Shown: positions 41,601 to 58,136, counted from the stretch's first letter. The stretch is 64,000 bases of DNA from Candidatus Oxydemutatoraceae bacterium (GCA_965219575.1 OZ244779.1:1409928-1473927); one strand, 5' to 3'. Numbers and translations are program-made. Notes: a model not told the origin generated them from the sequence alone.

Positions 41601-44600
41601 GCAACGAGGGCTGGATGCCGATCGGTAGCAATAGCCAAACGACCGTTAGTGCGCCGATGATATTTGAAGGCAACGGCTATACAATCTCCAATCTGTATCA
41701 AAACACCGCTACTGATAGTGGTTTATTCGGCAATATAGAAAATGTCAGGGAGAGACCGCTCGCTATTTACAATATCGGTCTGCTTGATATAGATATTCAA
41801 ACCCGAGGCGGCGATAACGGCGGCTTAGCCGCTGCATGCCGGAATTGTCGTATAGCAAACAGCTATGTCACCGGCACCTTGTCGTCTGAAGGAACGGTTG
41901 ATACGCTGGGCGGTTTGGTGGGCCGCGCTACTTCTGATTCAGCAGGTGCTACTGAATATCGAAACATTTATGCGCGGGTTGATTTAACAGGGAATGCGGT
42001 ACATTCGGGTCATTTGCTGGGTTTGGCTACGGTTCGTATTGCCGAGTCTTATGCCAGAGGCTACCGACAAGAAACCTACGAAGGCGCAATAGTAGGAAGT
42101 TTAAGTATAAGGAACGACAATGAATTCGGTTTTCTCGTAAATTCCTATGCAACGGGTAGCGATATTACCGATATTATTATTGAAAATACCCTTTTATTCA
42201 TGGACTCTACCGCAACACAGACCGTATCCGCACTAACATCACCGACCACTAACGAAGGCATCTATGAACAATGGAATCAAGGAGAAAACATCTGGGATTT
42301 CGGCACATCCGAACAGTACCCGATTCTAAGATATAACATAGGCAATAACTTTAGACGCGTCTACGATTATGATTTATGTTCTCAAGGACTTCGCATGAAA
42401 AGCACCGACCAACCACAATGCGGCACATTCCTGCCCGATCAAGGGATCGGCTTGAGAGACCTGAATATACTTGAACCTACAATAACAAGAACCGATAACA
42501 TCTTCGTTTCCGACCGAACCGAATACACCTTATGGATCAGAGAGAATGAAGCGCAAATTCAATTGGAACTGAACGGATATGACTTTAGAGGTATTATCAC
42601 GATTGACGGTGTCGGTGCGGCGATCGGTACCACGATGACTACGATTGCATTGCCTAACGACATATCGGTACGGAACATCGTTGTCGCCGATGCCGCTTCA
42701 ACGGAATATAAACTCACCATTATCAAATCAGCGGATATTGCCGGAACAGGAGTAATCACGGTGGATCCCATGCCTGCCGAAGACGGAACTTGGGACGAAG
42801 GGAGCAGAATTGAACTGACATCCGACATAGTCGGAGGAAGCTATTTATGGACCCAACCGGAAGAAAGCGCGTTAGAAATAGTGGAGCAGAACGATGCCAT
42901 GATCACGGTTCGGGCGCCGGGAGACTTCGTGGCGCCGGATGCAATGACTCGCAACACGACATTGACACTGACGGTTTCCGATCCCCTAGAGCAAGACGGC
43001 AGGGTAATAAGCCGAGTATTGACGATAAACAAAATAGACAACGGGCCTGCCGAGATTGATTTTGTGGGGCAATTCGGCAATAGGCAGCTAACCGTTATCG
43101 TGGGCAATGATCCCGACGGTGATGTTGCCGAATACCGATATCGATGGCAGAGCCAAGCCCCCGGTTCAAACTTATGGGCAACCGTAGCCTCGATAACGAC
43201 TGCCTTGAATAAGGTTGATTATCAAATACCGGCGGATACTACCACCGCTACCCGCTATCGGGTGGAGGTGCAATACACTGATGCGCAAGGGTATAGCACC
43301 GACGAGGTAGCGGGCAATTATTTATACAGAGCCGGAGATAACGACGATAACGACAACGGTTTTATAGATATTTATACGTTGGAAGATTTGGCCGCAACGA
43401 CAAGCGATGGCCGCTACGAATTGAGAGGAAACTTAGACTTCAACGACCCGCTGAGCTATGCCGATACTAGAAACATGGATGACTGGAGTGCGAATGAAGA
43501 TAGAAGCAATCGGGGGTGGGAGCCTATTCCTCCTGTAAATCTTGAGTTTGTCGGTTATATTTTTAACGGGAATGGTCATACCATCTCCAACCTTTATATC
43601 AATAGAGCGGTTAATAGAAACTCTGAAAATCAAAGGATCGCTTTATTCCGCGAAATAGGACCGAGTAGCACGATCAGAAATATAGGTTTAATCAATGTAG
43701 ATATTAGAGGATACTTTTTCGCAGGTGGATTGGTCGGTATCTCAGACGGTAGTGTTATTTCTAGCTATGTGGGCGGTTCCGTTAAAATCAGCAGTAATGA
43801 TAGGGCGGCAGGATTAGTTGGTGAAAACACTAACACGGGTATCATTGATAATAGCTATGTTATCGCAACGAGCGGCACGATTGTAGGTCTTGGGAACACA
43901 GGAGGACTGGTAGGTTTTAATTCCGGTACAATCAGGAATAGTGGAGCGAATGTAGCGGTACAAGGAACCGATGGAGTTGGCGGCTTAATAGGTCGCAACA
44001 GAGCTGTGGGTGACACTGCTCGTACGTCCAGGGTTCATAATAGCTTCGCGCAGGGTTCCGTCACCGGGAATCAGAATGTAGGTGGTTTAATAGGACTTAT
44101 TCAACCGATGTCCACCGTTCAAAATAGCTATGCAAGCGGCGATGTTACCGGTTCATCCAATTTAGGTGGGTTGATCGGTTCTTCCACAGTTCCTGCGCTT
44201 TCCATCGAAAACAACTATACGATATCTAAAGTAATTCCCAATGGCGATGGAAGGATAGGAGGATTGCTGGGTAATACTGGCAGTCCAGCCGCTAGCTACT
44301 GGAATAGCGATGTTTATACCGAAGACGACAGACGCCCCACCGATGACGATGCCACAAGCAAAACCACGGTGGAACTGCAATCACCGATAGATGCAACCGA
44401 CATTTATCGACAATGGAGTACAGACAACTGGGATTTCGGTGATGAGATGACTTATCCGATGCTTCGCTACGACCCGACCTCATGTAACTTAGATTCCGAT
44501 ACCGCACGCTGCGGGCTATTGCCCAATCAGCAATATGAGACTGGTCTGGGCGCACTGTTTCTGCTATCGAACGGCGAGGTATTGAATCCCGATCTACGCC

Positions 44601-47600
44601 TCGGTAATCAACCGTTTTCCGTTTTGCGAGAGAATTATAGTATAGGTATTCTGAATCGGAGCGAGGTTCAATTAAGACCTTTTGCCGTCGGTGGTGATGC
44701 CGAGATTAAAATCATAAGTGACGGCGATAACCAAGATTATTTTTCCGGCAAATCCAGCGGTCAGCCTAGCAACCCGATTCCATTAAGTCTAGATATCGCA
44801 ACGACTGTATCCGTTGTCGTGACCGACGGCGATATAAATACCACTTACACGCTGGCCATGAGCAGATACGACATAGAGACCGAAAGCACGGTCGTAGATG
44901 AAGGAGACGAAATCACCTTAAACACCGGTGCGATAGGCGATAGTCGTAACTGGTCGTTTATGCCGCCGGACTCGGTTGACATTCTATCGGGGCAGGGCAC
45001 CCCTACTTTGAGGGTGAGGATACCCGATACCTTTGTGCCGGGAGGTATGGAGACTACCATGGCCACCCTCGTATTTGAAGTAGATATAGTTGACGGGGCA
45101 ACAACCTATACACCGAGAGAAACACTGATAGTCAATAAGATAAATAACGGGATGCCTCCCGATATCGGTTTGGAAATAGGCTCGACGACCCTGAGTATCG
45201 TTCTCGGCGAAGGTACCGATTCGGACGGCGAAGGTGAGTTTATGTACACATGGGAAAAGGTATCTGTTGAAAATGGTAGAAAAGAGCGGAATGAGGTTTC
45301 TACTTCACCTGAATATAGATTGCCCGACACCGACAACGGAAGTACCCGCTATTTCGTGAATGTAATCCACATCGACGGTCAAGGCTTTGTAACAGACTAC
45401 GCAACCCGAGAGCCATCTATTTCGGAGCCGATTAGGCGAATAGATATAGACATAGACGATGACGACAATGGCTTGATAGATATCTACTACTTGGACGACT
45501 TGGACGAAATACGCGAACATTTGACCGAAATGCCGGCAACTTGCGGTCAAAACAACGATCAACCTTGTGAAGGTTATGAATTGCAAAGAAGCTTGAACTT
45601 TCGTTCCGGTGGCTCTTATATCGGAGATGTGAATCAGGCATGGATATCTACATTTACATCATCACCTCCAGGTTGGCAACCCATAGGGAGCATTGAAACC
45701 CCTTTCAATACCGTTTTTACGGCAGCTACCGATAATCTATTCATCGATCGCTTGTATATCAATAGACAAGAGGAGGACAATATCGGTTTGTTCGGTGTGA
45801 TCGGTCCCCGAGCCCAAATTTTGGATATTCAGGTACGGAATCCAAACATTAGAGGGCGGTATGCGGTCGGCGGTTTAGTCGGCGTGACGAGTAGGTTAAC
45901 CGATAGCGAAGGTTCGGTTACCGAGAGTTCTCTTATTGCCAACAGCTCCGTAGTTTTTACTCAATTGACTGGTACTCAACTAAGAGCGACTCGCGCATGG
46001 CTCGGTGGACTGGTCGGTTCTAATTACGGTTCAATCGTCAATAGCTATACCCAAGTCAGGCTAAACGGGGATTTTGCAGTGGGTGGTTTGGCAGGTTACA
46101 GCTTCGGTCCGATCAGTGATAGCTACGCACTCAGCTTCTATAGCATACCCGCTACTAGCGGAATTAACGAAGGCAATGATATCATAGAAGCCGGAAATGC
46201 GGTCGGTGGCTTGGTCGGTTATAACCATAACGAGAGCCCATTCAAAGGAGGGGGTTCCATTACCAATAGTTATGCCATCAATAGTGTACTGGGTGATTTC
46301 GATGTCGGCGGCTTGGTCGGCTATAACGATGCCGGCACTATCACGAACAGCTATGCGCTCGGTCATGTGGTCGGTGGCACGAATGTCGGCGGCTTGGTCG
46401 GCTACAATAGCAACGGAACGATTGTCGGCTATGCCGGTAATATCGTAACAGGCGGAAATAATGTCGGCGATTTGGTATCCCTCGAGTCCGGCGGTACGGT
46501 CACCGCACTGCTTACTACGCCGACCCTGACATACACAAGGAATTTTGACGGCAACGGCTATTCAAGTTGTGCCGTTGCCGACGGACAAACCGATTATCGA
46601 GTCAAATTACCGGCTTGCGACACACCGCTTCCGGAGCAAGATTCAAGAATCGGCAGAGGTACTCCGGCATTGAGCGGTGTGACTTTATCGGTCGGTACAT
46701 TGGAACCTGAGTTTGACCCGGCTAGAAGCGCATTCTCTAGTTTTAATGGTTATGAGATTTTTGATATCCCCGAGGGCACGACGAAAATAACGGTGACGGC
46801 TACAACGAATAGTCCAAATACTGATTTGGTTTTTGCCGCGGGTTCTTCTACCACTAGAGAAAATAATTCGCGTACAATTTCGCGTACAATTCCGTTAGAT
46901 ATTGAAGAGGCATTTATTTCTGCAGAGCGAGGTACAGCAAGCGATTACGCCATAGTAATGCCTGACCAGCCTGATTTAAGCGGCACCCCGCGAATGCCAT
47001 GCCGCGCAGATACCGCAGATAGAGATGGCGACGGCTTGATAGAAATTTGCGATCTGGAAGGCTTGTATGCGATGCGCTATCGATTGGATGCCGATGCCAT
47101 GCCGAAGACTTGTGGAGAGAGTAACGATAGTGCTTGCATCGGATATGAGTTGGTCAGAGATTTAGACTTTAACGAGAACGAAAGCTATCGCAATGCATCC
47201 GAGAATAAACCGATATGGACGACCGGTAGAGGTTGGCGACCGATAGGAAATCCCAATAATCCTTTCAATGTGGAATTTAGCGCAACCACCGGCCACAGCA
47301 TCGCTAATCTGATGATTAATAGAGACTTTATTAGAAATTATAGCGGATTATTCGGCTATACCGGACGCAATGCTCGTATCGTCAATATCGAACTATCGGA
47401 TGCAAATGTTCGCGGTAGATACTTAACCGGTGGCTTGGTCGGTCGCAACGAAGGCACGATTATCAATAGCCGTGTAACCAGCGCGAGCACGGTTATCGTA
47501 AGGAATGCATGGGGTGGCGGTCTGGTAGGTGATAACGCCGGAATCATCAACGATAGCTACACGGATGGCGATGTGACAGGCAGAGATCAGATCGGTGGCT

Positions 47601-48544
47601 TGGCCGGTATTAACAGCGGGCAGATTATCAATAGCGTAGCCAAGAGCAATGTGGCAGGGGCTACCTTCGCCGGTGGCTTGGTCGGTGTCAATGCCGGCAA
47701 CATTAATAATAGTTATGCAAGCGGTACGGCGGGAGAGAACTTTTATTATGCCGGCGGTTTGGTCGGTTTGAATGTCGGTAGCATCGCAGACACATACTCA
47801 ATCGGCAATGTGAACGGAAGGGAACGAGTAGGCGGTTTGGTCGGTGATAACAGAAACTTGATAGCCTCGAGTTATGCTGCCGTCGGCAATGTGGTAGGAA
47901 CCAGACTGGTCGGTGGCTTGGTCGGCATCAACAGTGGCTCGATTATCGACAGCTACGGCGATCAAAGTACTTATGGTTTAGTCGGTGAAAATTTCCCTGT
48001 CGGAACGATAAGGAACAGTCAAATTTTAAGCGATATGAACTTTCAATCGCAATTCTCCATTCCCGGATGGCGTGCTACCAGCTGGGATTTCGGCACCAAC
48101 AGGCAATACCCGGCACTCAAATATCTAAGAAGCGAAACCGACCCGATTGACTGCGAACAATGTGGCATGTTACTGCAGGGTCAAGCGATGAGACCTGATT
48201 TTTCATTGAGTGCGCCGGCGGAATCGGAAACTCTAATTGAAACGCCGAGCGGCTATACGCTGAACATCAACTTCAACGCAAGGCAAGCCACCCTGATTCC
48301 CGATGCGGATGTTGACAATGTTGTTATTCGTTATAGAGTAGATAACGGGGTGGACCAGACAGCTACGAACAGACAACCCTTTACCGTAGCACTGCCTTCT
48401 AGTGCTAGAACAATCACAATCACATTAGACTTAGGTGGTGACGAAGACTTCCAAGTTGGCGAAATGATAGAATATAGGGTTGATGTCCGCAGAGTTATCT
48501 ATACCCAAATCAGATTATTCCCCGAAGGCCTACTAAATCCATAA
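38645..48544 (+). CDS. Giant secreted repetitive surface protein (3299 aa) with GLUG-like GGLVG repeats and 4-5 tandem ~650-aa modules
   Basis: Signal peptide MKLKPIFVAQFILLAVLPCQSALG. Recurring module: LLNPNLQLSD..TRTLTV.IP.DF segment, acidic DxDxDGLIEIYYLEDLDAIRY (dockerin/EF-hand-like) motif, long arrays of NSYA.G.V.G...VGGLVG (GLUG-type), and a closing WDFGTSEQYPILKY...QCGTFLPDQ. Confidence 0.8.
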   Translation: MKLKPIFVAQFILLAVLPCQSALGQVPSENPGITLQKGITIEGSANEGEELTLSLPDDAIAGGSGNSENYSYRWEYRPSDRSQLLNPNLQLSDPNTRTLTVRIPTDFIARDYNQSDVIFTVTVGEDGSTASTESIVTIIKRNNFVPTLDVNLKLNSNISGTTASITAVVDNISDSDGDGEFTYSWQSLALGDTQWRGVKMETTTRTLSAYTVPEGTTPTTRYRVEISYTDAQGHAVTEQFGTYRTDVDIDDDGLIEIYYLEDLDAIRYQVNGSGYQPVPSDDIDLNNSGCNEDGDGTCNGYEIARHLDFGNDAHYQDLSNKATWTEGAGWSPIDSLATALEGNGNTISGLRIVRNQGNQGLFAQLGGSSGIIRNLGLLKVNINIMSSGIAGGFAGRLGGRIIRNSYVKGTIVGNQEIGGFAGDGLGQIINSYANVNIEGRFSGGLYGEGDAGITSSYVTGSVTGPSVGAIVSESNSFIANSYAANNLGNIKDNNQTGISNSYARVPDRHNELKEPTAPGTSDPELYIGWRTNRWDFGTSEQFPILKYVEDCSNDPQTQRTDPPQCGTFLPDQNDGLRDLEIISEVIKLDKVFASEITNYDVSFNDDTPNLTLRLKAYESDSQISVRRHGDSTDYFAGMRDTPDVGNDISLTGTEQTTVTITVREVFPATETEYVLTLINETLIVSGEIGITGDVMITENVISTTEGRSFTLEAPQVSGGIDMPDYEWTVTPENTSQLLNPNLQLSDTTTRTLTVTIPNDFIGRASTSSNVRFKLTVNNDVSGSSRNIVVRIDKTNNDSSELNPTWVEDGISLDAVIDIEDIEDLDGNPGENDISYQWQRKAINNDVWMNIPDDATSETYTIPQLEYPIAFNYRVGVRYTDRQGYLSDIAYSDPTPADYRPDIDTDDDGLIEVYYLEDLDAIRYQLDGSGYRTSTQATVIKAGCGYNDNGSMVCRGYELIRDLDFGVDNSYSSTANRVIWQPNDGKSNEGWMPIGSNSQTTVSAPMIFEGNGYTISNLYQNTATDSGLFGNIENVRERPLAIYNIGLLDIDIQTRGGDNGGLAAACRNCRIANSYVTGTLSSEGTVDTLGGLVGRATSDSAGATEYRNIYARVDLTGNAVHSGHLLGLATVRIAESYARGYRQETYEGAIVGSLSIRNDNEFGFLVNSYATGSDITDIIIENTLLFMDSTATQTVSALTSPTTNEGIYEQWNQGENIWDFGTSEQYPILRYNIGNNFRRVYDYDLCSQGLRMKSTDQPQCGTFLPDQGIGLRDLNILEPTITRTDNIFVSDRTEYTLWIRENEAQIQLELNGYDFRGIITIDGVGAAIGTTMTTIALPNDISVRNIVVADAASTEYKLTIIKSADIAGTGVITVDPMPAEDGTWDEGSRIELTSDIVGGSYLWTQPEESALEIVEQNDAMITVRAPGDFVAPDAMTRNTTLTLTVSDPLEQDGRVISRVLTINKIDNGPAEIDFVGQFGNRQLTVIVGNDPDGDVAEYRYRWQSQAPGSNLWATVASITTALNKVDYQIPADTTTATRYRVEVQYTDAQGYSTDEVAGNYLYRAGDNDDNDNGFIDIYTLEDLAATTSDGRYELRGNLDFNDPLSYADTRNMDDWSANEDRSNRGWEPIPPVNLEFVGYIFNGNGHTISNLYINRAVNRNSENQRIALFREIGPSSTIRNIGLINVDIRGYFFAGGLVGISDGSVISSYVGGSVKISSNDRAAGLVGENTNTGIIDNSYVIATSGTIVGLGNTGGLVGFNSGTIRNSGANVAVQGTDGVGGLIGRNRAVGDTARTSRVHNSFAQGSVTGNQNVGGLIGLIQPMSTVQNSYASGDVTGSSNLGGLIGSSTVPALSIENNYTISKVIPNGDGRIGGLLGNTGSPAASYWNSDVYTEDDRRPTDDDATSKTTVELQSPIDATDIYRQWSTDNWDFGDEMTYPMLRYDPTSCNLDSDTARCGLLPNQQYETGLGALFLLSNGEVLNPDLRLGNQPFSVLRENYSIGILNRSEVQLRPFAVGGDAEIKIISDGDNQDYFSGKSSGQPSNPIPLSLDIATTVSVVVTDGDINTTYTLAMSRYDIETESTVVDEGDEITLNTGAIGDSRNWSFMPPDSVDILSGQGTPTLRVRIPDTFVPGGMETTMATLVFEVDIVDGATTYTPRETLIVNKINNGMPPDIGLEIGSTTLSIVLGEGTDSDGEGEFMYTWEKVSVENGRKERNEVSTSPEYRLPDTDNGSTRYFVNVIHIDGQGFVTDYATREPSISEPIRRIDIDIDDDDNGLIDIYYLDDLDEIREHLTEMPATCGQNNDQPCEGYELQRSLNFRSGGSYIGDVNQAWISTFTSSPPGWQPIGSIETPFNTVFTAATDNLFIDRLYINRQEEDNIGLFGVIGPRAQILDIQVRNPNIRGRYAVGGLVGVTSRLTDSEGSVTESSLIANSSVVFTQLTGTQLRATRAWLGGLVGSNYGSIVNSYTQVRLNGDFAVGGLAGYSFGPISDSYALSFYSIPATSGINEGNDIIEAGNAVGGLVGYNHNESPFKGGGSITNSYAINSVLGDFDVGGLVGYNDAGTITNSYALGHVVGGTNVGGLVGYNSNGTIVGYAGNIVTGGNNVGDLVSLESGGTVTALLTTPTLTYTRNFDGNGYSSCAVADGQTDYRVKLPACDTPLPEQDSRIGRGTPALSGVTLSVGTLEPEFDPARSAFSSFNGYEIFDIPEGTTKITVTATTNSPNTDLVFAAGSSTTRENNSRTISRTIPLDIEEAFISAERGTASDYAIVMPDQPDLSGTPRMPCRADTADRDGDGLIEICDLEGLYAMRYRLDADAMPKTCGESNDSACIGYELVRDLDFNENESYRNASENKPIWTTGRGWRPIGNPNNPFNVEFSATTGHSIANLMINRDFIRNYSGLFGYTGRNARIVNIELSDANVRGRYLTGGLVGRNEGTIINSRVTSASTVIVRNAWGGGLVGDNAGIINDSYTDGDVTGRDQIGGLAGINSGQIINSVAKSNVAGATFAGGLVGVNAGNINNSYASGTAGENFYYAGGLVGLNVGSIADTYSIGNVNGRERVGGLVGDNRNLIASSYAAVGNVVGTRLVGGLVGINSGSIIDSYGDQSTYGLVGENFPVGTIRNSQILSDMNFQSQFSIPGWRATSWDFGTNRQYPALKYLRSETDPIDCEQCGMLLQGQAMRPDFSLSAPAESETLIETPSGYTLNINFNARQATLIPDADVDNVVIRYRVDNGVDQTATNRQPFTVALPSSARTITITLDLGGDEDFQVGEMIEYRVDVRRVIYTQIRLFPEGLLNP

Positions 48545-48554
48545 AGACAAACCA

Positions 48555-48898
48555 TTCCCCTCCTTCGGAGGGGTGGCAGGCGTTAGCCTGACGGGGTGGT
48601 CGCTTCGTGGGACTGTTGAAAAAATACCGTTTGGCACGGATAATATGTTTATCCACAAAATTTATGTTTACCTACCGTAGGGGCGGACTAACATGTCCGC
48701 CCTAAAGTGCCGTTCTGCACAGCCGCAACCGCTTGCGCCAACAAATAATGGTTTCCATAATATTAATGGGTAAACGCGTTAATCGTGCAAACATGATACG
48801 TTTCGGGCGGACATGTTAGTCCGCCCCTACGGGTGGTTTGTAAATATTCACGGCGCAAGCGGTTGCAATTATGCAAAAACAGTACTTTTTCAACAGCC
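48555..48898. repeat. Family B hairpin repeat plus a full family A MITE (two palindromes)
   Basis: CATTCCCCTCCTTCGGAGGGGTGGCAGGCGTTAGCCTGACGGGGTGGTCGC, then CTGTTGAAAAAATACC…ACTTTTTCAACAGCC. Confidence 0.8.
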
Positions 48899-48941
48899 CC
48901 AACGGTTCTGCACAAGTCAACCACACAAACTACTTTGACAA

Positions 48942-49892
48942 TCAATCCAACGCAATAAAAGTGCCACGGCTTTGTCTGGCAACCTCGCGCAACAAAGTGG
49001 AAAGACGAAGTATATCGCCGCCTTGTTGGTTATAAAAACCGATACCGTGGATGCGGGCAATAGGCTTGCCCGTTCCTCTATCGGTATTGAGTCCGGCGAT
49101 CGTTTGCAATACCGGGTCGTAAGACGAACCGGTGTAATCATCTCCTAAAATATAGATTGATACTTTCATATTAGGCTTCACATAGAGTTTTAAGGCTTCT
49201 TGTAAGCCTTCTACCGGGCTACTGTTAGAGAATGCTTGCCACGAGCGCAGTAATTGCAATACGCGTCTGCGCAAGCTGGGTGTGTCGTCGATCCATTTTC
49301 TCTTATAGGCGGAAATCAAATGTATGCCGTTGTCGTTGAGGATTTGAAAGCCTTCCACTTTCGGATGTATGTTGAGTATATTTTCCATGTCTTTCATGAC
49401 CTTAGCCCATATCTCTAACATAGAGCCCGAAGTGTCTACTATAAAGACGATGTAATTCGCATCAACCGGTATGCCGCCGGCGTAGACTTCGTCTTCGACA
49501 TTTCTATCTACACTTGTCGTTGCCGAAGGCGAATTTGTTTTTTGTTGCAGTATAGCCATCTCGGCCTGCAAGGTTGAGTTCTCCGATTGTAGCGTTGCAA
49601 GCGTTTGGCTTGCTTTTTTAATAGCACTTTGAAGTTGCGTCTCTTTATCTGTTTGTGTATCGATTGTAGACGAAAGTTGTTGCGATTGCGATTCAAGTTC
49701 GCCACTTTGTACTTGCGTTTGAGTGAATGTTTTGAGCAGCTCTGCGATGCGATCTATATCGATCGTGCCACCGCCGATCGTCGATTTGGAAAGCAATACC
49801 AACAGCACGACGGCACCGAAACCACACGAGATAACATCCAAAAAGGAAAGGTTGAATATCTGGAAATTGCGTAAACGTCTTTTCATGGCCAC
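48942..49892 (-). CDS. ExbD/TolR-like N-terminal TM + coiled coil + vWA-domain protein (paralog 2)
   Basis: N-terminus RRLRNFQIFNLSFLDVISCGFGAVVLLVLL matches the ExbD/TolR TM region (…INVTPFIDVMLVLL…), including the conserved Asp. A Q/S-rich coiled coil follows, then a vWA domain with MIDAS VFIVDTSGSM. It overlaps the upstream paralog by 10 nt. Confidence 0.6.
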   Translation of the reverse strand: MAMKRRLRNFQIFNLSFLDVISCGFGAVVLLVLLSKSTIGGGTIDIDRIAELLKTFTQTQVQSGELESQSQQLSSTIDTQTDKETQLQSAIKKASQTLATLQSENSTLQAEMAILQQKTNSPSATTSVDRNVEDEVYAGGIPVDANYIVFIVDTSGSMLEIWAKVMKDMENILNIHPKVEGFQILNDNGIHLISAYKRKWIDDTPSLRRRVLQLLRSWQAFSNSSPVEGLQEALKLYVKPNMKVSIYILGDDYTGSSYDPVLQTIAGLNTDRGTGKPIARIHGIGFYNQQGGDILRLSTLLREVARQSRGTFIALD

Positions 49893-50959
49893 GAATGTTC
49901 GGGTGATATGAGTAAGCCATCGCTTCTAGCCGTCCATTGCCAAAAAGCACCGGCTGCGTAAGAATCGCCCTCCAACGGGAGGAGGATAACATTGACTTCT
50001 GCGCGTTCCCTATACGATGCGACTATGTCGTTGAGTAACCTGACCCTGCATTTACCGCTAATTTTTTGGGCATTGCCGGTGATAGAAGCACATCCTCTGA
50101 AAAACGAAGCGACTGCTCTGATCCTTCCGGTATTTCCCTGCGTAGGCAAGCCGTCGGTTAGCAGATAGACGTTCGAGAAACCTGCGGCACTGCTACGCAT
50201 CAACGCAACTGCGGCGTGTAGATTTGTGCCACCTTCGGGTACGATTTGCTTAAAGTCCGACAATATCATTGCCGCAGCTTGAGGATCTGCGCCTTTTTTC
50301 CAAGCACTTCCGCCGACGACCGAGGCATTTTCGGCAAAGCGGATGATTTTATAATCACTACCTTCGGGTACTCTGGCAACCAGCCACTCTACGATCCGCA
50401 GAGTGCGTTGCCATTTGGGACTTTGTTGACGTTCTTGTGCGGATGCGACTTTATATCGAATGACATCTATTAGCCGCTCTTCGGTCATCGAGGCACTGCT
50501 GTCCACCAGTATGACGATCCTTCTTCCTTTTACCTCCAAGCCCAGCAGATAATCTTCCAATCCTTTGTTGACCACCGGCACCGGAGCAGGGGGAGCTTGT
50601 GTAGGTGTAGGTGTATCTGCTTGCGATTGCAGTTTTGCGATTTGCGCTTTTAATGATTGTTGCGTCTCTTTTTGATTATTGATATTCGTCACCAAAGCGA
50701 TTAGTTGTGCATTGAGTTGTGTCAATTCGGTTTGAGTATCGTCGGCTTGGGTTTGCAGTGTTTCTACGGTTTGTTTAGATTGTCGGTTCTGCTGTTCCAA
50801 AGTTGCAATATCGGCTTGTAAGGCGGACGATTGCCGGTCGGGTAATTCGGTTTGATATTTGACCAGCATCAGTATTAATATGACAGCCCCTAGACCGCAC
50901 GACATGACGTCCAAGAAGGCGATATTGAATCCTTCGGTTTTTCTTTTCAGGTGCCGCAT
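49883..50959 (-). CDS. ExbD/TolR-like N-terminal TM + coiled coil + vWA-domain protein (paralog 1)
   Basis: N-terminus RKTEGFNIAFLDVMSCGLGAVILILML. Coiled coil. vWA domain with MIDAS VILVDSSASM. Confidence 0.6.
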   Translation of the reverse strand: MRHLKRKTEGFNIAFLDVMSCGLGAVILILMLVKYQTELPDRQSSALQADIATLEQQNRQSKQTVETLQTQADDTQTELTQLNAQLIALVTNINNQKETQQSLKAQIAKLQSQADTPTPTQAPPAPVPVVNKGLEDYLLGLEVKGRRIVILVDSSASMTEERLIDVIRYKVASAQERQQSPKWQRTLRIVEWLVARVPEGSDYKIIRFAENASVVGGSAWKKGADPQAAAMILSDFKQIVPEGGTNLHAAVALMRSSAAGFSNVYLLTDGLPTQGNTGRIRAVASFFRGCASITGNAQKISGKCRVRLLNDIVASYRERAEVNVILLPLEGDSYAAGAFWQWTARSDGLLISPEHSWP

Positions 50960-50962
50960 TGC

Positions 50963-51201
50963 ACTAGTCTATCCCTCTTCTATGGAGGGGTGGCTAACAT
51001 GTCTACCTAAAGTATTGCGTCTGTACAATTCCATTTATTGAGCCAATTAATGACCACCCGCCGTAGGGGCGGACTAGCATGTCCGCCCGTAACGCGTTGC
51101 GCCTGCACGATTTATACATTCATCCATCCAATTTATGGAAACCATTATTTGTTGGCGCAGGGCGGTTGGTGTTGTGCGATGTCCGCACTCTTTCAACAGC
51201 C
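50963..51201. repeat. Family B-like hairpin plus a partial family A MITE inserted between the MotA-like gene and the vWA genes
   Basis: …CCGTAGGGGCGGACTAGCATGTCCGCCCGTAACGCGTTGCGCCTGCACGATTTATACATTCATCC…CTTTCAACAGCC. The left terminal inverted repeat is missing. Confidence 0.7.
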
Positions 51202-51230
51202 TCATCGTATCTGCTCCAGTTCTGCACCAA

Positions 51231-52004
51231 CTATTCACTCTGCCCTATCGGATTCATGATGTGCTGTTCGCAATAAGCCCTGATATCGACGATCAAGCCG
51301 TCTTGTATTCTTTGTAGCTGGTGCAACAAAAGCATCAGAAATATACTAATGACAAGCGCAACCAGAGTAGAATTGAATGCCACTCCCAAGCTATTTGTCA
51401 TCCCGGCGATATTTCCCGCTAAGGCTTGGTCGGCTTGCGATAGGGCTTGCCCAATACCGCGCACCGTACCGATGAAACCGATTGACGGAATTGCCCAAAT
51501 CAAATAGCGTATCATCGAGTTTTCCGCCTCTATGCCGAGCACCAGTGCGTCCATTTTCGCGTCTATCGCTTCGGCGGTGTAATGCACATCTTTGGTGATC
51601 AAAAAACGATCCAAACCGACGAGTAGTGTTTGCACCAAAGAAGTTTTGACGATGTCGGTCGGTAGTGTATTGAGCTGGTCGCGTGCCGCTTTGGCGATTT
51701 CAATTTTATTGCCGTTTTCTATCTTGGAGAAATCTACCAAACTTTCGTCGAACAAGTAGCGGTCTTTACCGATTGCGATAATTTTTCCGACTATCAAATA
51801 GGTTCCCCATAGCATCAGAATGAGGCAGATTTCCTGTTCCAGATCTTTTAGGATTACGAAAAGGTTGCGAGGCACCGCTTGCCCTCGCTGTTCGGCAAAT
51901 TGAATGGCAATATCGGCATTGGGAAGAATGAAACCGATATAAATCAAATGCACGAATAGCACCGATATTATCAAAGCAATAAGGCTTTTGATTAGCTTCG
52001 ACAT
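51231..52004 (-). CDS. MotA/TolQ/ExbB proton-channel family protein
   Basis: Three-TM topology. C-terminal channel signature IWAIPSIGFIGTVRGIGQAL...GMTNSLGVAFNSTLVALV. Confidence 0.8.
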   Translation of the reverse strand: MSKLIKSLIALIISVLFVHLIYIGFILPNADIAIQFAEQRGQAVPRNLFVILKDLEQEICLILMLWGTYLIVGKIIAIGKDRYLFDESLVDFSKIENGNKIEIAKAARDQLNTLPTDIVKTSLVQTLLVGLDRFLITKDVHYTAEAIDAKMDALVLGIEAENSMIRYLIWAIPSIGFIGTVRGIGQALSQADQALAGNIAGMTNSLGVAFNSTLVALVISIFLMLLLHQLQRIQDGLIVDIRAYCEQHIMNPIGQSE

Positions 52005-52012
52005 CGGTACGC

Positions 52013-52153
52013 TTATATATCTACGGGAAAGGTCGCCGGTGAATTGAGGCTCAGAGAGTAGCCGGCGATGCCGGCAATCGCGATGCCGGCAAGCAATAAG
52101 AGTATTGCTATTACGATGGCTACACGATACTTTGTCTTAAAGCTATATTTCAT
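52013..52153 (-). CDS. Small single-TM peptide (46 aa) immediately upstream of the MotA-like gene
   Basis: Hand-translated: MKYSFKTKYRVAIVIAILLLLAGIAIAGIAGYSLSLNSPATFPVDI. Its stop lies 9 nt before the MotA-like start. Not in the ORF track (<60 aa). Confidence 0.3.
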   Translation of the reverse strand: MKYSFKTKYRVAIVIAILLLLAGIAIAGIAGYSLSLNSPATFPVDI

Positions 52154-52278
52154 AATTGCAGTATATCAAATATTTATGAATGTATGATTTTTCAATAACC
52201 CTATATTATAATATCCACATTTTGCCAAACCTATTAAAAGAATTCTCGGATAGGAAACCGAATAAGAGAGGAATCATT

Positions 52279-53694
52279 ATGAAAAAGAAATATATTACAA
52301 AAAAAGAATACAAAGCGATCGAAATTCAAAGCCAAATCGGCATCGACAAAATAGAACAAAAAGACTACGACGGTGCAATTATAGCCTTTGATAAAGTAAT
52401 CGAGTTAGAACCGGATAATGTTTTTGCCTACAATATCAGAGGAATCGCTAAATTAGAATCGGGTGATTATGCAGGCGCAATTGCCGATTACGACCATACA
52501 CTTAAGTTAGAACCGAATAATGCGTCCGCTCACGGTGCCAAAGGAATTGCTAAGATGAGATCGGGTGATTATGCAGGTGCGCTTGCCGATCTTGATTGCG
52601 TACTTGAGTTAGAACCGAATAATAAGAACGTTCGTGAAACTAGGGAAATTGTTAAAGCACTTTTGGATAACTCCGAGGAGGCGATTGCCGATTTTGACCG
52701 TGCGCTTGAGTTAGATTCGAATAATCAAGCGGCTTTTAGTGCCAGAGGAATTGCTAAAATAGCATCGGGCGACCTTGCAGGTGCTGTTAGCGATTTTGAT
52801 CGCACACTTGAGTTAGAACCGAATAATAGTGCTATCTACAATGCCAGAGGACTTGCTAAGCATGACTTAGGCGATTATGCCGGTGCGATCGCCGATTTTG
52901 ACCGTGCGCTTGAGTTAGATCCGAATAATTCCATCGCCTACAGTGTTAGAGGAGCTGCTAAAGCTAATTTGCAACATTACGAGGAAGCGATTGCCGATTA
53001 CGATCGCGCGCTCGAGTTAGATCCGAATAATCTCACTGCCTACAGTGAGAGAGGAAATGCTAAGATTTACTTAGGCGACTATGCAGGTACGATTGCCGAT
53101 TACGATCGCGCGCTTGAATTAGGGCTGGATCATCCGGCTGCCTACAATAGCCTTGGAATTGCTAAGAGGGAATTAGGTGATTACGCGGGCGCGATTGCCG
53201 ATTACGATCGCGCGATCGAGATGGATCCGGATAGAGCGGATAGCTATTATAACCGGGGTAATGCTAAAGCCGATTTGGAAAACTATAAGGAGGCGATTGC
53301 CGATTACGACCGCGTGCTTGAGTTGGTGCCGAGTGATGTGGATGCTTATTATCATCGAGGAATTGCTAAGGATAAATCAGGCGATTATGCAGGTGCGATT
53401 GCCGATTGCAACCGTGCACTTGAGTTGGCACCGGATAATGTGGATATTTATTTTTACCGAGGTGCCGTGAAGGATAAATTAGGCGATCATATAGGTGCGA
53501 TTGCCGACTACGATCGCGTACTTGAGATTGACCCGGATGCTGCGCGTGCTTACAATAACCGAGGATATGCCAAGGCAAACTTAGGGGACAACGAGGGGGC
53601 GATGGACGACTACAACCGTGCAATCGAATTAGAGCCGAGTCATCATTTCGCGATTGCAAATCGAGAATTACTTAAAGCAAAACTGGGTCGTTGA
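52279..53694 (+). CDS. Tetratricopeptide-repeat protein (paralog a)
   Basis: About 12 TPR units (DYxGAIADYDRALELEPNN). Start placed at MKKKYITKK, preceded by AGAGAGGAATCATT. Confidence 0.7.
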   Translation: MKKKYITKKEYKAIEIQSQIGIDKIEQKDYDGAIIAFDKVIELEPDNVFAYNIRGIAKLESGDYAGAIADYDHTLKLEPNNASAHGAKGIAKMRSGDYAGALADLDCVLELEPNNKNVRETREIVKALLDNSEEAIADFDRALELDSNNQAAFSARGIAKIASGDLAGAVSDFDRTLELEPNNSAIYNARGLAKHDLGDYAGAIADFDRALELDPNNSIAYSVRGAAKANLQHYEEAIADYDRALELDPNNLTAYSERGNAKIYLGDYAGTIADYDRALELGLDHPAAYNSLGIAKRELGDYAGAIADYDRAIEMDPDRADSYYNRGNAKADLENYKEAIADYDRVLELVPSDVDAYYHRGIAKDKSGDYAGAIADCNRALELAPDNVDIYFYRGAVKDKLGDHIGAIADYDRVLEIDPDAARAYNNRGYAKANLGDNEGAMDDYNRAIELEPSHHFAIANRELLKAKLGR

Positions 53695-53737
53695 AAAAAA
53701 CTTCTCAGGCAGTAAACCAAATAAGAGAGAAATCATT

Positions 53738-54445
53738 ATGAAAAGCAAAGATATGACAAAAAAAGAACACGAAGAACTCAAGACTCAAAGCAAAATTGCG
53801 CTTGCCAAGTTAAGCCAAAAAGACTACGAAGGCGCAATTATAGCCTTTGACAGAGTAATCGAGTTAGACCCGAACAATCCTTATGCCTATGGTGTCAGAG
53901 CAATCGCGAAAAAAGAATTAAAAGATTATGCGGGTGTGATTACCGATTGCAATCGAGCACTCGAGTTAGAACCTAACGATGCGAGTATCTACAATAATCG
54001 AGCAATTGCTAAGAGTGAATCAGAGGATTATGCAGGTGCGATTGCCGATTATGACCGCGCACTTGAATTAGAACCTAGCAATGCAGATGTTTATAATAAT
54101 CGAGGAAATGCTAAGACTGAATCGGGCGATTATGCCGGTGCGATTGCCGATTACGGCCGCGCACTTGAGATTTCACCGAATGATAATGATGCGGATGTCT
54201 ATTATAATCGAGGAAATGCTAAAGCTGAATCAGGTGATTATGCCGGTGCGATTGCCGATTTCAACCTTGGCCTTGAGATCAATCCGAACGATGTATATGG
54301 CTATTTCAGTCGAGGAAATGCCAAGAAAAACTTAGAGGATAACGAGGGGGCGATTGCCGATTATGATCGCGCACTTGAATTAGACCCGAATAATGCCATT
54401 GTGCGTAACAAACGAAGTTTAGTCAAAGAACAATTAGGTCATTAA
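53738..54445 (+). CDS. Tetratricopeptide-repeat protein (paralog b)
   Basis: Same repeat consensus. Start at MKSKDMTKK. The leader AAACCAAATAAGAGAGAAATCATTATG nearly duplicates the leader of paralog a. Confidence 0.7.
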   Translation: MKSKDMTKKEHEELKTQSKIALAKLSQKDYEGAIIAFDRVIELDPNNPYAYGVRAIAKKELKDYAGVITDCNRALELEPNDASIYNNRAIAKSESEDYAGAIADYDRALELEPSNADVYNNRGNAKTESGDYAGAIADYGRALEISPNDNDADVYYNRGNAKAESGDYAGAIADFNLGLEINPNDVYGYFSRGNAKKNLEDNEGAIADYDRALELDPNNAIVRNKRSLVKEQLGH

Positions 54446-54504
54446 GATAAAACCACCAATTGAGCCGGTAGGTCAATCGGCTTAACTTGTGCAGAACCTT
54501 GAGG

Positions 54505-54650
54505 CTGTTGAAAAAGTATTTCATACAATGTAGGGGCGGACTGGCATGTCCGCCCATAACGCGTTATGCCTGCACGATTTATACATTCATTCACCCAATT
54601 TATGGAAACCAAAACCGAATGGCGCAAGCGGTTACGGTTATGCGGTTCAA
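54505..54650. repeat. Family A MITE, right end truncated, preceded by a family C fragment (54455..54490)
   Basis: GGCTGTTGAAAAAGTATTTCATACAATGTAGGGGCGGACTGGCATGTCCGCCCATAACGCG…. Confidence 0.7.
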
Positions 54651-56650
54651 TAGATATAGCGAGCGATGCGAAAGCCTATGCTATCGGATTTGCCGACCGC
54701 TCGCCGGCGATAGGCGGAGCGTAGTTCCGACAAAGTGCCGGAACGCCAGCTGGAACCCTTGACGACATGACCGCTTTGGCTGGTATTGTTTGTCGGACCC
54801 AGGGGGTTGCGCAGCGGTTCCGAGGGCATCTCTACTGAATAGACATCGTGAACCCATTCACTGAGGTTGCCGACTAGGTCGTATAGACCGGCACGATCGC
54901 GATTGAAAGAACCGACAGGTGCCAGTTTCGGATAGCCGTCGTTATAATTCGGAATATACGATGTAACATTATTTTTAGCACTTTCATCGGCGAGGTTGCC
55001 GACATTTTTAGGAAGTGTTGTTTTATTACCCCAGATAAACAGAGTTGAGGCACTGCGGTTCGCGTAGCGTGCGAGCCATTCCCACTCCGCCTCACTAGGC
55101 AAACGATAGCCGATACCATTCGGATTATAGCCTCTAACGATATTGTTATCGGTGATATAAAACGGAGGTAGACCCTCTTGTGCGCTCAAGTCGTTGCAAA
55201 AAAGTGCCGCCTCGCCCCAAGAGATATTATTCACCGCAAGTTCCGACGGTGAAATTTGCCGATTGAAAGTATGGTATTGTTTAGCGGATATTTCGCTACG
55301 GCTGATATAAAAAGGTTTATCAAGGCTTACGCTACGCAAAACCTCGTTGGCACGCTGACCTTTCTCGCTACGGTGTGCGCCCAATTCAAAGGTGCTCGCT
55401 TTATCGGGCCTGAACAAGATCAGTTCCAGCCCTATAGAATTTTTGGCAACGGTAGGGCTTTCGGCTAAGGTCGCTTGTCGGTCGGTGCGCAATGTTTCGT
55501 TAATTCGGATCGGGTTGCGGCTACTCGGGCGAATGACTTTTTGAATTGTGCGATACCCGGGTCTGGAGAGACGCACCGTATGAGGTAATGCTCTTAGCAT
55601 AAGAGTTTGAGGTGTTTTCCCTATTGCTTCGTTGTCTATTATGATGTCTGATTGCGGGTTTGCATCGATAATCACTTCACCGAATTCCGCTTGTAGTGAT
55701 ATGGAAATATCCTGTTGTTGCGCCGGCCTAAAGGTGCGCTTAATCGTTTTTGCCGAGTAGCCGGGTTTGGTGTAGTCGATGACGGTTTCACGCATCGCTT
55801 CGAGATCCAGCGGCATCGTGTTTGTAGGTGTTAGTTTGCCGTTGATCAGCAACTGCCCACCGGGTGGTTCGAGTGTGAGTGTGAGCAGGGCTTTTTTATA
55901 AATCAGTCTATAGTTTCTATCGGCAACCGGCTGTGCATAAGTAATCTCAATGGTATCGTCGATGCTTTCAAAGTCGGGGGTTTCTATGCGCAGGCGATAG
56001 CTACCGCCGGGTCGGTTTAACGAGAGCGGGGTTTGTCCTGCAGATATATCGTTCAACAAAATCGATACACCTTCGGGTTCGGAGGTTATATCGAGTGAAC
56101 CTTGCACAGGTTCTAAAACAAATTCCAGTGTTTGTTCGTCGCCGCGCATCAAATCAACCGAGACTTGTTGTGGTTGATAGTAGGGATGCACGACTTCCAC
56201 GGTATGCGTGCCGGGTTCTATGGGCACCTGTAGTTCGGGTCCCGATGCAATATATTCCGAGTCAATTCGCCATTGTATATCGGGATCGGCAGGGGTTGCG
56301 GTCGCTTTGATCAAAGCCGGTGCTTCTTTGAGTTCAATAATAATACGCCGAGCCAGTGTGCTACGCTCCAGGCGGATCGTTTCGGCAATAAAACCCGATG
56401 CCGAAACTTTCAAGTCTGCCTCGGGTGATAGCAAATAGACTTTATCTTGTTGAACCCAACCCAACCCGTCCAATACACGCTCGGCATTGATCGCCGCCAC
56501 TTCGGGCATTACTTCGACGACAACCGCTTTGACCCAAAAGATAAATACGAAAAGGGCGACGATTGCGATGATTGCCACGCTGCCGGTTGCAATAATCTTT
56601 TGCCAAAAAGATCTTCTTTGTCTGCGGAAATGCGCCTCAGATAGTTTCAT
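54647..56650 (-). CDS. Membrane-anchored PEGA-domain protein with C-terminal formylglycine-generating-enzyme (FGE/SUMF1-type) domain
   Basis: N-terminal TM. Three PEGA-like beta-sandwich segments (…LDITSEPEGVSILLND…, …IIDANPQSDIIIDNEAIGKTP…). C-terminal FGE-sulfatase signature (GYRLPSEAEWEWLARY, YDLVGNLSEWV, GFRIARY). Confidence 0.7.
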   Translation of the reverse strand: MKLSEAHFRRQRRSFWQKIIATGSVAIIAIVALFVFIFWVKAVVVEVMPEVAAINAERVLDGLGWVQQDKVYLLSPEADLKVSASGFIAETIRLERSTLARRIIIELKEAPALIKATATPADPDIQWRIDSEYIASGPELQVPIEPGTHTVEVVHPYYQPQQVSVDLMRGDEQTLEFVLEPVQGSLDITSEPEGVSILLNDISAGQTPLSLNRPGGSYRLRIETPDFESIDDTIEITYAQPVADRNYRLIYKKALLTLTLEPPGGQLLINGKLTPTNTMPLDLEAMRETVIDYTKPGYSAKTIKRTFRPAQQQDISISLQAEFGEVIIDANPQSDIIIDNEAIGKTPQTLMLRALPHTVRLSRPGYRTIQKVIRPSSRNPIRINETLRTDRQATLAESPTVAKNSIGLELILFRPDKASTFELGAHRSEKGQRANEVLRSVSLDKPFYISRSEISAKQYHTFNRQISPSELAVNNISWGEAALFCNDLSAQEGLPPFYITDNNIVRGYNPNGIGYRLPSEAEWEWLARYANRSASTLFIWGNKTTLPKNVGNLADESAKNNVTSYIPNYNDGYPKLAPVGSFNRDRAGLYDLVGNLSEWVHDVYSVEMPSEPLRNPLGPTNNTSQSGHVVKGSSWRSGTLSELRSAYRRRAVGKSDSIGFRIARYIY

Positions 56651-58136
56651 TGCAGATAACTTTGACGGTTGCCGGCTGATTCGGTTTTATCTCTATTTCA
56701 ACGAGTTTGTCTTGATAACCTCTGCGCTCTCCTTTGAATCGGTAGCGTCCCGGTTTTAGGCCTTCTTTTAACCTATATTCGCGTACTTTGCCGATGACAC
56801 CGATTCCGAGTACCGACACATAGGTTTTTTCATCGGAATAAACCGTAACCGCAACCGGTTTAGACATTTCTACTATCGCATCGTTTAGCCGCATAATAAG
56901 CTGTTGCAGTTGTGCGCTGTATTCGGCGGATAGAGTACTGTCTTCGGCTATCTGTTTCATCGCTGTTGCAATTTGCTCGTCGGCCAAGCGTTCGGGTTTT
57001 GCCAGTGCTTGTTTGATTATCCCGGTGTACCGATTAATCTGCACGGCGCGTTGTAAGTTGTCTTCGGTATCTTTATTATTCGGATATATTCCGAGTGCTT
57101 GTCGGTAATAGTTTTCGGCAGATTGCCAATCGTCTCTATCTGCCGATGTATTCGCTTTTGCAATTAGGCTTCGGTAGGATAGTTCGGTTTGTATCTGTTT
57201 AAGTTTAGCGGTGAGCAAGCCTAAGGACGGGTGATTGGCATCTATTTGCTTGATTTGCATAAGCGATGCTTGGGCTGTTTTGACATTTTTATTGTCCAGT
57301 GCTTGCGATGTTTGTTGTAGCAAGGAGTCGAGTTTTTGTTGGCGTTGTTTTGCTATCAGTATTTCGCGTCTTTCTATCAGGGCACCACGATCGGGGTCCA
57401 ATTCGATCGCTTGTTCGAGTAAATTAATCTCTTCGTTTATATTGTTTTCAATACGCGCAATATCGGCTTGCTCGATGAGTGCGGAAACCGCTTCCATTGC
57501 GCCGATACGTTCTTTTAATAGTAATGCTTCCGCGGCCTCGGGGAAATAGCGTAGTGCATCATCGATTGCCGCTTGCGCTTGCGCCGGTTGATTTGCTTCG
57601 AATGCCTGCTCGGCATTACTAAAAGCCGATTGAAAATTCCGACTTTGAAGTGATCGTAATTCGCTTACCTTTCCAAATAGATCATCCAGACGGTTTAAGG
57701 CTTGACCGTATCGTGTTTCGGCAAATGCCCTGATTGCCTCTTGTTCTTTTGCTTGTAATTCCGGTATGCTCTCGGGGGACCATGCAGAAAGATTGAGTGT
57801 GCCGATTTCAGGTTTGATTTCATTCTCATAGCGGTTCATTTGTACGATATATTTTTGTCGTAGTGCCTCGCTTTGTTCTTCGTTCGGCGACTCACCGATA
57901 GTATCATCGGTAATTTTCTCCTCTTCTTCGGGTATGTAGATCGGTTCGATGTCCGGCGACTCACCGATAGTGTCATCGGTAATTTTCTCTTCTTCTTCGG
58001 GTGTATAGATCGGTTCGATACGCCCGTACACCAAAACTAAAATGGCAATGACAAGTAATATCGCACCGCCGATAAGGTTGACGATTAAGGAATATCTTTG
58101 GGTTCTTTTTCCGCTTTTGAGTTGATGATTATCCAA
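56637..58136 (-). CDS. TM protein with a duplicated acidic repeat, helical/TPR-like region and C-terminal PEGA domain
   Basis: TM near the N-terminus. Direct 23-aa repeat IEPIYxPEEEEKITDDTIGESP. C-terminus VAVTVYSDEKTYVSVLGIGVIGKVREYRLKEGLKPGRYRFKGERRGYQD is PEGA-like. Overlaps the downstream gene by 14 nt. Confidence 0.5.
   Translation of the reverse strand: MDNHQLKSGKRTQRYSLIVNLIGGAILLVIAILVLVYGRIEPIYTPEEEEKITDDTIGESPDIEPIYIPEEEEKITDDTIGESPNEEQSEALRQKYIVQMNRYENEIKPEIGTLNLSAWSPESIPELQAKEQEAIRAFAETRYGQALNRLDDLFGKVSELRSLQSRNFQSAFSNAEQAFEANQPAQAQAAIDDALRYFPEAAEALLLKERIGAMEAVSALIEQADIARIENNINEEINLLEQAIELDPDRGALIERREILIAKQRQQKLDSLLQQTSQALDNKNVKTAQASLMQIKQIDANHPSLGLLTAKLKQIQTELSYRSLIAKANTSADRDDWQSAENYYRQALGIYPNNKDTEDNLQRAVQINRYTGIIKQALAKPERLADEQIATAMKQIAEDSTLSAEYSAQLQQLIMRLNDAIVEMSKPVAVTVYSDEKTYVSVLGIGVIGKVREYRLKEGLKPGRYRFKGERRGYQDKLVEIEIKPNQPATVKVICNETI

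Follow-up and report, generated by a model that had tools for sequence, protein, structure and literature searches.

An eight-gene envelope operon ending in a TolQ-like channel gene and paired membrane-tethered vWA genes: a candidate ion-driven motor of a previously predicted family

Ion-driven motors with a 5:2 subunit ratio provide the power for flagella and gliding, for nutrient uptake and the upkeep of the outer membrane, and for type IX secretion and Zorya defence. The locus described here lies in a 64,000-nt window (the whole stretch of DNA analyzed; all coordinates are positions in it) of Candidatus Oxydemutatoraceae bacterium (GCA_965219575.1 OZ244779.1:1409928-1473927). It is an eight-gene operon that ends in a gene for a MotA/TolQ/ExbB-family channel subunit and two genes for paralogous von Willebrand A (vWA) proteins (referred to as vWA-A and vWA-B). 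The closest described systems are the motors predicted by Williams-Jones et al. (Mol Biol Evol 2025, PMC12204202), in which heterologous pairs of genes for transmembrane (TM)-tethered vWA proteins are in tight linkage with tolQ homologs and neither tolR nor exbD is present (Fig. 4c-d of that paper). In these proteins a conserved Asp lies in a “trans-pore helix” (TPH), and AlphaFold 3 models put the pair of Asp residues inside the Thr ring of the channel pentamer (PMC12204202). The modelled example is from Idiomarina loihiensis, and the motor is a computational prediction; the TPH-vWA family is proteobacterial and includes Idiomarina (PMC12204202).

The window locus has the same core architecture as the TPH-vWA motors. 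It belongs to the TolQ-like/TPH-vWA family, because Idiomarina xiamenensis carries the same eight-gene operon, with a vWA-A 35% identical to that of the window (E=1e-69); the comparison runs through I. xiamenensis, the species of the paper being I. loihiensis. A first-pass annotation of the window had considered a proton-driven channel with vWA output domains to be outside the characterized families, which can no longer be maintained, as a computational study of 2025 had already set out this architecture and mechanism (PMC12204202). Because the central idea had already appeared as a prediction, what is added here is narrower: the eight-gene operon is defined, a conserved mini-peptide is described, and internal controls that support a functional TM helix are provided. 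The five genes upstream of the trio (PEGA/FGE, TPR, lipoprotein, acidic protein and mini-peptide) are absent from the text of PMC12204202, and we found no literature on the composition of the operon or on the NCBI product names of its genes.

The operon and its channel and vWA genes

The operon consists of the following genes, with their presence among the 84 loci from relatives that were compared with the window given where it was counted gene by gene:

g1, 59454-60212, minus strand: secreted acidic low-complexity protein, first operon gene (same position in 66 of 84 loci by tblastn)
g2, 58168-59433, minus strand: 421-aa lipoprotein (68 of 84 loci)
g3, 56637-58136, minus strand: 499-aa protein with an N-terminal TM anchor, TPR-like repeats and a C-terminal beta domain (69 of 84 loci)
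g4, 54647-56650, minus strand: 667-aa protein with an N-terminal TM anchor, PEGA repeats and an FGE-sulfatase fold (77 of 84 loci)
g5, 52013-52153, minus strand: 46-aa precursor with a signal-peptide-like/TM segment followed by an LNSPxSFPVDI C-terminus
g6, 51231-52004, minus strand: 257-aa MotA/TolQ/ExbB-family ion channel subunit (PF01618)
g7 (vWA-A), 49883-50959, minus strand: 358-aa protein with a TM helix bearing Asp17, a helix at residues 41-114, a linker, and a vWA domain with a complete metal-ion-dependent adhesion site (MIDAS)
g8 (vWA-B), 48942-49886, minus strand: protein with a TM helix bearing Asp19, a helix at residues 46-119, and a cryptic vWA domain without the MIDAS Thr

The last four of these open reading frames (ORFs), annotated at 46, 257, 358 and 316 aa and spanning 48942-52153, were correctly placed on the minus strand in the first-pass annotation, and the TM strings and the DSSASM and DTSGSM motifs quoted from them are exact. 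The 10-nt overlap reported between the two vWA genes exists if GTG at 49892 is chosen as the start of g8 (316 aa). The family-consistent ATG at 49886 gives a product of 314 aa and a 4-nt ATGA overlap, as found in 51 of 56 relatives.

Gene order from g1 to g8 is identical in every locus with enough flanking sequence, and the channel-vWA trio is the 3′ end of this array. When the ORFs of the 84 loci were clustered, a set that excluded I. xiamenensis and a metagenome contig (L085 and L086), the eight operon genes were the only ones conserved and the flanks differed. The real unit is a strictly conserved eight-gene envelope operon, and its order is strictly kept at about 40% identity among Alpha-, Beta-, Gamma- and Zetaproteobacteria, Desulfobacterota and Binatia.

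The closest genomes are metagenome-assembled genomes (MAGs) of Candidatus Porisulfidus (Gammaproteobacteria), whose vWA-A is 94% identical to that of the window, and a protein 100% identical to vWA-B is present on a 2.37-Mb contig. More than 2,000 relatives were scored in the vWA-A search and more than 4,400 in the vWA-B search, and 642 clusters at 50% identity match g6 at E<=1e-10. According to a genome scan, at least 412 species carry the family, and most of them are Proteobacteria from marine or aquatic habitats or symbionts of sponges. Among the carriers are Methylophaga, Alteromonadales (Glaciecola, Pseudoalteromonas and Idiomarina), Sneathiella and other Rhodospirillales, as well as Mariprofundus, Nitrosomonadaceae, Desulfocapsaceae, Binatia, and the sponge-named MAGs Ca. 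Spongiihabitans and Ca. Porifericomitaceae. No match was found in 72,556 plasmids or 50,697 phage records.

The assignment of g6 to the MotA/TolQ/ExbB family is sound: its residues 136-240 match the Pfam MotA_ExbB domain (PF01618; E=4e-12) with 46.4 bits, above the curated cutoff of 22.9. Across 24 sequences, T180 and T213 never vary; they lie in the last two TM helices, which line the pore in this family, and stand opposite TolQ T145 and T178 in an hhalign alignment (E=1.3e-4). The TolQ, TolR and ExbD sequences used in these comparisons, which we take to be those of E. coli, reproduce the known numbering of T145, T178, D23 and D25. The PF01618 channel and the TolQ-equivalent Thr residues are thus features that g6 shares with the ExbB-ExbD, TolQ-TolR, MotA-MotB and PomA-PomB systems. 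C-terminal of the last TM helix, g6 has about 30 residues.

The paralogy proposed for the two vWA proteins is well supported, as they are 32% identical over their first 160 aa (BLASTP, E=3e-17) and their family profiles align through the TM helix, the coil and the vWA core (hhalign, 99.6%, E=1e-23). vWA-A clears the Pfam VWA_2 cutoff (30.9 bits vs. 27); vWA-B stays under the Pfam vWA cutoff (17.9 bits), and a precomputed Pfam domain is present in 0 of its 120 best database relatives. In AlphaFold2 models built from family alignments, both paralogs consist of one long helix of about 74 residues, a low-confidence linker, and a C-terminal domain with a predicted local distance difference test (pLDDT) score of about 90, the whole vWA-A model having a pLDDT of 78. 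Foldseek matches both C-terminal domains to vWA folds (probability 1.0), including anthrax toxin receptors, ITIH1, CLCA1, TFIIH p44, BatA/BatB and LapA; vWA-B matches the vWA domains of ANTXR1/2 with a probability of 1.0 and a TM-score of about 0.65. As modelled, both heads have the vWA (Rossmann-like) fold. The long helix and the vWA matches agree with the earlier description of a coiled-coil-type helix and a vWA domain in place of the TolR-fold or OmpA-like domain.

The MIDAS residues of vWA-A (D153, S155, S157, T245 and D269) are all invariant in 31 sequences, and so is a Cys pair (C290/C304) that, judged from the sequence, fits a periplasmic location. In the vWA-B family alignment, F13, S16-D19, D153-S155, S157 and D251 are invariant. 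The intact MIDAS ascribed to both proteins is therefore complete in vWA-A, and vWA-B lacks its Thr, so that the full site is present in one paralog only. The distance from the TM Asp to the MIDAS Asp is 133-143 residues in vWA-A and 131-139 in vWA-B (57 loci, across phyla). Despite this near-constant spacing, which is matched between the paralogs, the sequence of the coil drifts between relatives. A co-variation of stalk length between vWA-A and vWA-B was sought, and no correlation was measurable because the lengths are nearly constant.

Immediately upstream of the channel gene, at a distance of 0-24 nt, a small ORF with the LNSPxSFPVDI end is found in nearly all of 79 loci (77 of 79 in a loose search for the end motif, of which one is clearly a false positive and another lies 205 nt upstream). 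This motif is near-invariant at the g5 C-terminus: in 74 distinct sequences, L-11, P-4, D-2 and I-1 are invariant, and the hydrophobic N-terminal part is variable. An A-x-A site, cleavage at which would leave 12-24 aa, occurs in 52 of the 74 sequences, and g5 has no TM Asp. The ORF itself is present as annotated, and its conserved portion is the extracytoplasmic tail and not the hydrophobic segment. From these features, g5 looks like a signal-peptide-bearing precursor of a small periplasmic or secreted peptide and not like a dedicated TM subunit; if cleaved as predicted, it may give rise to a secreted peptide about 15-20 aa long.

The position of the B subunit

The pairing noted in the first-pass annotation, of a MotA-like channel with two paralogs that combine a TM Asp, a coiled coil and a vWA domain, recurs in every genome examined. 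The vWA pair is present in all 84 loci and the channel gene in 82, the two exceptions being contigs too short to include it. No ExbD, TolR or MotB gene was detected among the ORFs of the 84 loci and the window (phmmer, E<=10), nor in the Pfam-annotated neighbourhoods of the relatives. Instead, the position of the B-subunit gene beside the channel gene is occupied by the vWA pair.

The best-conserved part of both vWA paralogs is the TM helix. F15 and D17 are invariant in 39 sequences with both paralogs pooled, in agreement with the earlier statement that the TM Asp is kept in both; in the vWA-A family alignment, D17 is near-invariant and is absent solely from N-terminally truncated entries. The TM anchors of g3 and g4, which provide an internal control from the same operon, are not conserved in sequence. 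The vWA proteins have a basic N-terminus followed by a hydrophobic segment at residues 15-33, and with a single TM helix they are therefore predicted to have an N-in topology, like ExbD and TolR. The vWA pair and the partner subunits of the 5:2 motors would thus have in common one N-in TM helix whose Asp, of the essential type, lies close to the cytoplasmic side. Based on strong evidence from context, namely the absence of a B-subunit gene, the conservation of the TM helix, the alignment of the Thr residues, the translational coupling of the two vWA genes and the near-constant spacing between TM Asp and MIDAS Asp, the vWA pair plausibly works like a B subunit.

The vWA pair lacks an ExbD-fold or OmpA-like domain, which sets it apart from ExbD, TolR and MotB, and its sequences show no detectable relationship to theirs. 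Unlike in the classic motors, two different paralogs would pair up as the partner, with vWA heads borne on a coiled-coil stalk. Further, the operon contains no TonB/TolA-like transducer, unlike the Ton and Tol systems. The first 40 aa of the 39 N-termini gave no ExbD or MotB match in Pfam at E<=10, and the N-terminal profile gave no match to PDB sequences at E<=10. In the best local alignments, which are non-significant, the vWA TM Asp stands opposite TolR D23 and ExbD D25. The similarity to the ExbD/TolR TM helix noted earlier is therefore not supported by any significant match in Pfam, the PDB, hhalign or a ranking of background ORFs (the last two are given below).

A candidate motor and competing explanations

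The best explanation, which we hold with moderate confidence, is that the locus encodes a TolQ-like/TM-tethered vWA ion-driven motor of the family of Williams-Jones et al. We infer a 5:2 complex in which a ring of five g6 subunits in the inner membrane would conduct the ions. Where other motors have the ExbD/TolR/MotB dimer, the N-terminal helices of one vWA-A and one vWA-B would enter this ring, translational coupling of the two genes supplying both proteins in equal amounts. In each helix, the invariant Asp would face the invariant Thr residues of g6 and carry the ion (H+, or possibly Na+), and the ion flow would turn or pull the vWA heterodimer. The AlphaFold 3 models of the Idiomarina homologs (PMC12204202) lend this reading independent support. 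The two helices of about 74 residues would act as a stalk of fixed length (about 11 nm if straight, by our estimate) that holds the vWA heads in the periplasm, where vWA-A at least, with its complete metal-ion site, would grip an acidic residue of a partner. The likely partners would be the products of g1-g5, i.e., the acidic protein, the lipoprotein, the TM-TPR protein, the TM-PEGA/FGE protein and the PVDI peptide. As for its cellular role, our best guess is that the motor energizes a periplasmic or outer-membrane envelope process.

A more elaborate form of this explanation, which we put forward tentatively and consider possible but not probable, is that the eight genes encode a self-contained trans-envelope machine. 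In this machine, a heteromeric 5:1:1 rotary motor would drive a coiled-coil axle with vWA heads that engage a PorK-like FGE/PEGA scaffold and the lipoprotein, and a PVDI-COOH peptide of about 15 aa would gate or tether the heads as a MIDAS ligand. One idea is that the terminal Asp or carboxylate of the predicted g5 peptide serves as this ligand. If true, the machine would be a new functional class of envelope apparatus powered by the proton motive force, beside Ton, Tol, flagellar stators, Agl-Glt and the type IX secretion system (T9SS). More generally, a widespread motor whose axle ends in metal-dependent adhesion domains would extend the repertoire of 5:2 motors and point to a further envelope process. 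The defined operon gives experimenters a list of candidate partners, and cultivable carriers are available in Methylophaga, Idiomarina, Glaciecola, Pseudoalteromonas and Sneathiella.

Several observations weigh against the motor explanation. The literature yielded no functional study of any family member. When the g6-family profile was compared with the PDB, the sole stator match was Bacillus subtilis MotA (6YSL), a weak one (E=0.026), and phmmer of g6 against the PDB gave no relevant match. Residues 1-135 of g6 have no recognized counterpart, and because of an extra hydrophobic segment at residues 59-77, g6 may have four TM helices (MotA-like) instead of three (TolQ/ExbB-like). The TM region is poorly predicted, with low confidence, in both AlphaFold2 monomer models. 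vWA-B keeps the DxSxS motif and D251 and has SPVEG at the position of the MIDAS Thr, and therefore its metal site is altered. In the hhalign comparison of the vWA N-terminal profile with E. coli TolR and ExbD, the E-values are 0.11-0.14 and the probability is below 1%. A hidden Markov model (HMM) of the family TM helix ranks TolR 184th and ExbD 499th among about 5,100 background ORFs, ranks that are slightly pessimistic because the background set retained some family members, and MotB and PomB scored against the same background are not significant either. It is possible, from these comparisons, that the vWA helices arose by convergence instead of descent from a B subunit; we infer the homology of the axle to ExbD/TolR from context, and sequence comparison does not show it.

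The alternative that survives best, although we regard it as unlikely, is that the vWA proteins stand outside the channel and, similar to Bat proteins, serve as ordinary periplasmic scaffold or adhesion proteins anchored in the membrane. The MotA-like protein would then act by itself or together with the 46-aa product or a B subunit whose gene lies elsewhere. Bat systems (BatA/BatB of Bacteroides and Leptospira) likewise combine paired membrane-anchored vWA proteins with a TPR protein, and the structures matched by vWA-A include BatA (4jdu) and BatB (3ibs). The lack of significant similarity of the vWA N-terminal helix to ExbD, TolR or MotB, and the small TM/signal-peptide gene immediately upstream of the channel gene, are also what this alternative would lead one to expect. 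However, a buried invariant Asp with near-invariant flanks in both paralogs is unusual for a passive anchor, and the anchors of g3 and g4 show no such conservation. Bat systems contain MoxR and DUF58 proteins and are not known to have a MotA/ExbB channel, whereas neither a MoxR-type ATPase nor a DUF58 protein is found among the eight operon proteins or the genes conserved across the 84 loci; the locus is therefore not a Bat operon. As for the small gene, g5 is conserved in its extracytoplasmic tail and not in its hydrophobic segment, and it offers no TM Asp. We know of no MotA/ExbB/TolQ channel that works without a dimeric Asp-bearing partner.

A specific form of the motor explanation, which we regard as less likely still, is a secretion or surface-movement apparatus analogous to GldKLMN, in which the FGE-fold protein would be the base of a periplasmic or outer-membrane assembly driven by the rotary motor. 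GldLM is a 5:2 motor encoded beside GldK, and in both GldKLMN/PorKLMN and the operon an ion-driven motor would be encoded beside an FGE-fold envelope protein. g4 matches FGE-sulfatase (E=3e-31) and PEGA (E=2e-29) in Pfam, and its FGE-sulfatase fold domain occupies residues 420-664. Among named families this domain is closest to PorK/GldK, the best NCBIfam match of g4 (E=4e-19), and it matches the PorK structures 9ots and 9mzu. No Cys is present in the stretch of g4 aligned to the catalytic region of human FGE, whose catalytic residues we take to be Cys336 and Cys341. Because of this absence and of the match to PorK/GldK (below cutoff), the FGE domain is probably a structural or binding module and not an enzyme; PorK/GldK is likewise not known to be catalytic. 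A lipoprotein and periplasmic beta-sandwich proteins are also co-encoded. On the other hand, the PorK/GldK match reaches 69 bits, far below the cutoff of 350, and g4 is TM-anchored with PEGA repeats and has no lipobox, so that it is not a lipoprotein. The motor proteins are unrelated (GldL/GldM vs. MotA-like/vWA), homologs of GldL, GldM and GldN and a conserved cargo or adhesin gene were not found, and the carrier taxa are not known gliders. It had been left open earlier whether the locus might prove to be a Bat or gliding-motor component; it is neither. The suggestion that the PEGA/FGE genes are partners has held up better, g4 being present in most loci and among the only conserved genes.

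The least probable explanation is a Zorya-like anti-phage defence with vWA heads that sense envelope perturbation: ZorAB likewise has a MotA/ExbB-type channel outside motility and uptake, PADLOC gives weak partial matches of ZorA2 to g6 (E=4e-4, 17.5 bits) and of the ZorB3 N-terminus to vWA-A residues 13-66 (E=0.022), and one relative adjoins an SduA_C gene and a TniB gene, but the matches are confined to the shared channel core, g6 ends too soon after its last TM helix to have a ZorA-like tail, the peptidoglycan-binding ZorB domain and the ZorC/D/E effectors are missing, no nuclease or NTPase effector is found among the eight genes, whose products are all envelope proteins, and the absence of plasmid and phage matches and the strict gene order across phyla also speak against it. 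With weak partial channel matches only, no ZorA tail and no effectors, the locus is therefore not Zorya.

Upstream genes, insertions and flanks

Neither g1 nor g2 has a match in Pfam or NCBIfam. g1 contains a segment resembling a signal peptide, and its C-terminus is conserved (GKLPEDIPPADND...KLWNEYRKYKG); its start is uncertain, as the listed ORF extends to 60539 through a MITE-like (miniature inverted-repeat transposable element-like) repeat. A lipobox is present in 58 of 63 g2 homologs and Asp at position +2 is absent, which points to the outer membrane as the probable location of g2. The TPR matches of g3 in Pfam are weak. A 69-nt tandem duplication in g3 (57875-58012, 88% identity) doubles IEPIYxPEEEEKITDDTIGESP just after the TM anchor.

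The window operon is intact but interrupted between g4 and g5, and it thereby differs from the TPH-vWA motors in being split by TPR genes and MITE-like repeats. The inserted and repeated elements are:

52180-54643, plus strand: lineage-specific insertion between g4 and g5, with two TPR paralog genes and a MITE-like copy
51034-51200, no strand assigned: MITE-like repeat between g6 and g7 (repeat families D4, D5, D7 and I2; core at 51067-51088)
48650-48900, no strand assigned: MITE-like repeat downstream of g8, with 37-nt inverted arms (D5, D7, D8 and I7)

The two TPR genes of the insertion (52180-53694 and 53654-54445, plus strand) have a strict repeat periodicity of 102 nt (34 aa), and the MITE-like copy follows at about 54500-54643. 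In relatives, g5 comes directly after g4. The first-pass annotation had suggested these adjacent TPR paralogs as partners; TPR gene matches are found in only 4 of 84 loci, and they are therefore insertions, not partners. Similar TPR genes near the operon occur only in another Ca. Porisulfidus MAG (L006), the other three loci having weak matches (24-38%) downstream.

The repeat element seen earlier between the MotA-like gene and the first vWA gene is present at about 51034-51200, and the gap between g6 and g7 is 271 nt in the window vs. a median of 10 nt in relatives. Besides the copies in the g4-g5 and g6-g7 gaps, MITE-like copies lie just upstream of g1 (60216-60487) and downstream of g8. The latter contains the inverted repeat I7 (48670-48706 and 48801-48837), with core motifs at 48681 and 48805. 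The palindromic core GGGCGGACnnnCATGTCCGCCC has 14 sites in the window (16189-60453) vs. 0 expected. A promoter and terminator scan of 48500-54700 gave nothing above shuffled expectation.

Directly downstream of vWA-B, a Glyco_hydro_114 gene is present in I. xiamenensis and the metagenome contig (L085, 11060-11905, minus strand, and L086, 2257-3102, minus strand); both lie outside the 84 clustered loci, among which such a gene is not widespread. In the window, the operon is convergent with a gene for a giant repeat protein of 3,299 aa (38645-48544, plus strand). This adhesin-like neighbour was considered as a part of the system and rejected, as giant ORFs flank the operon in only four loci, all from close relatives. 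Its counterpart in one of the compared loci (L004) is 5,388 aa long and has faint or weak Pfam matches to Glug, cadherin-like and Ig-like domains.

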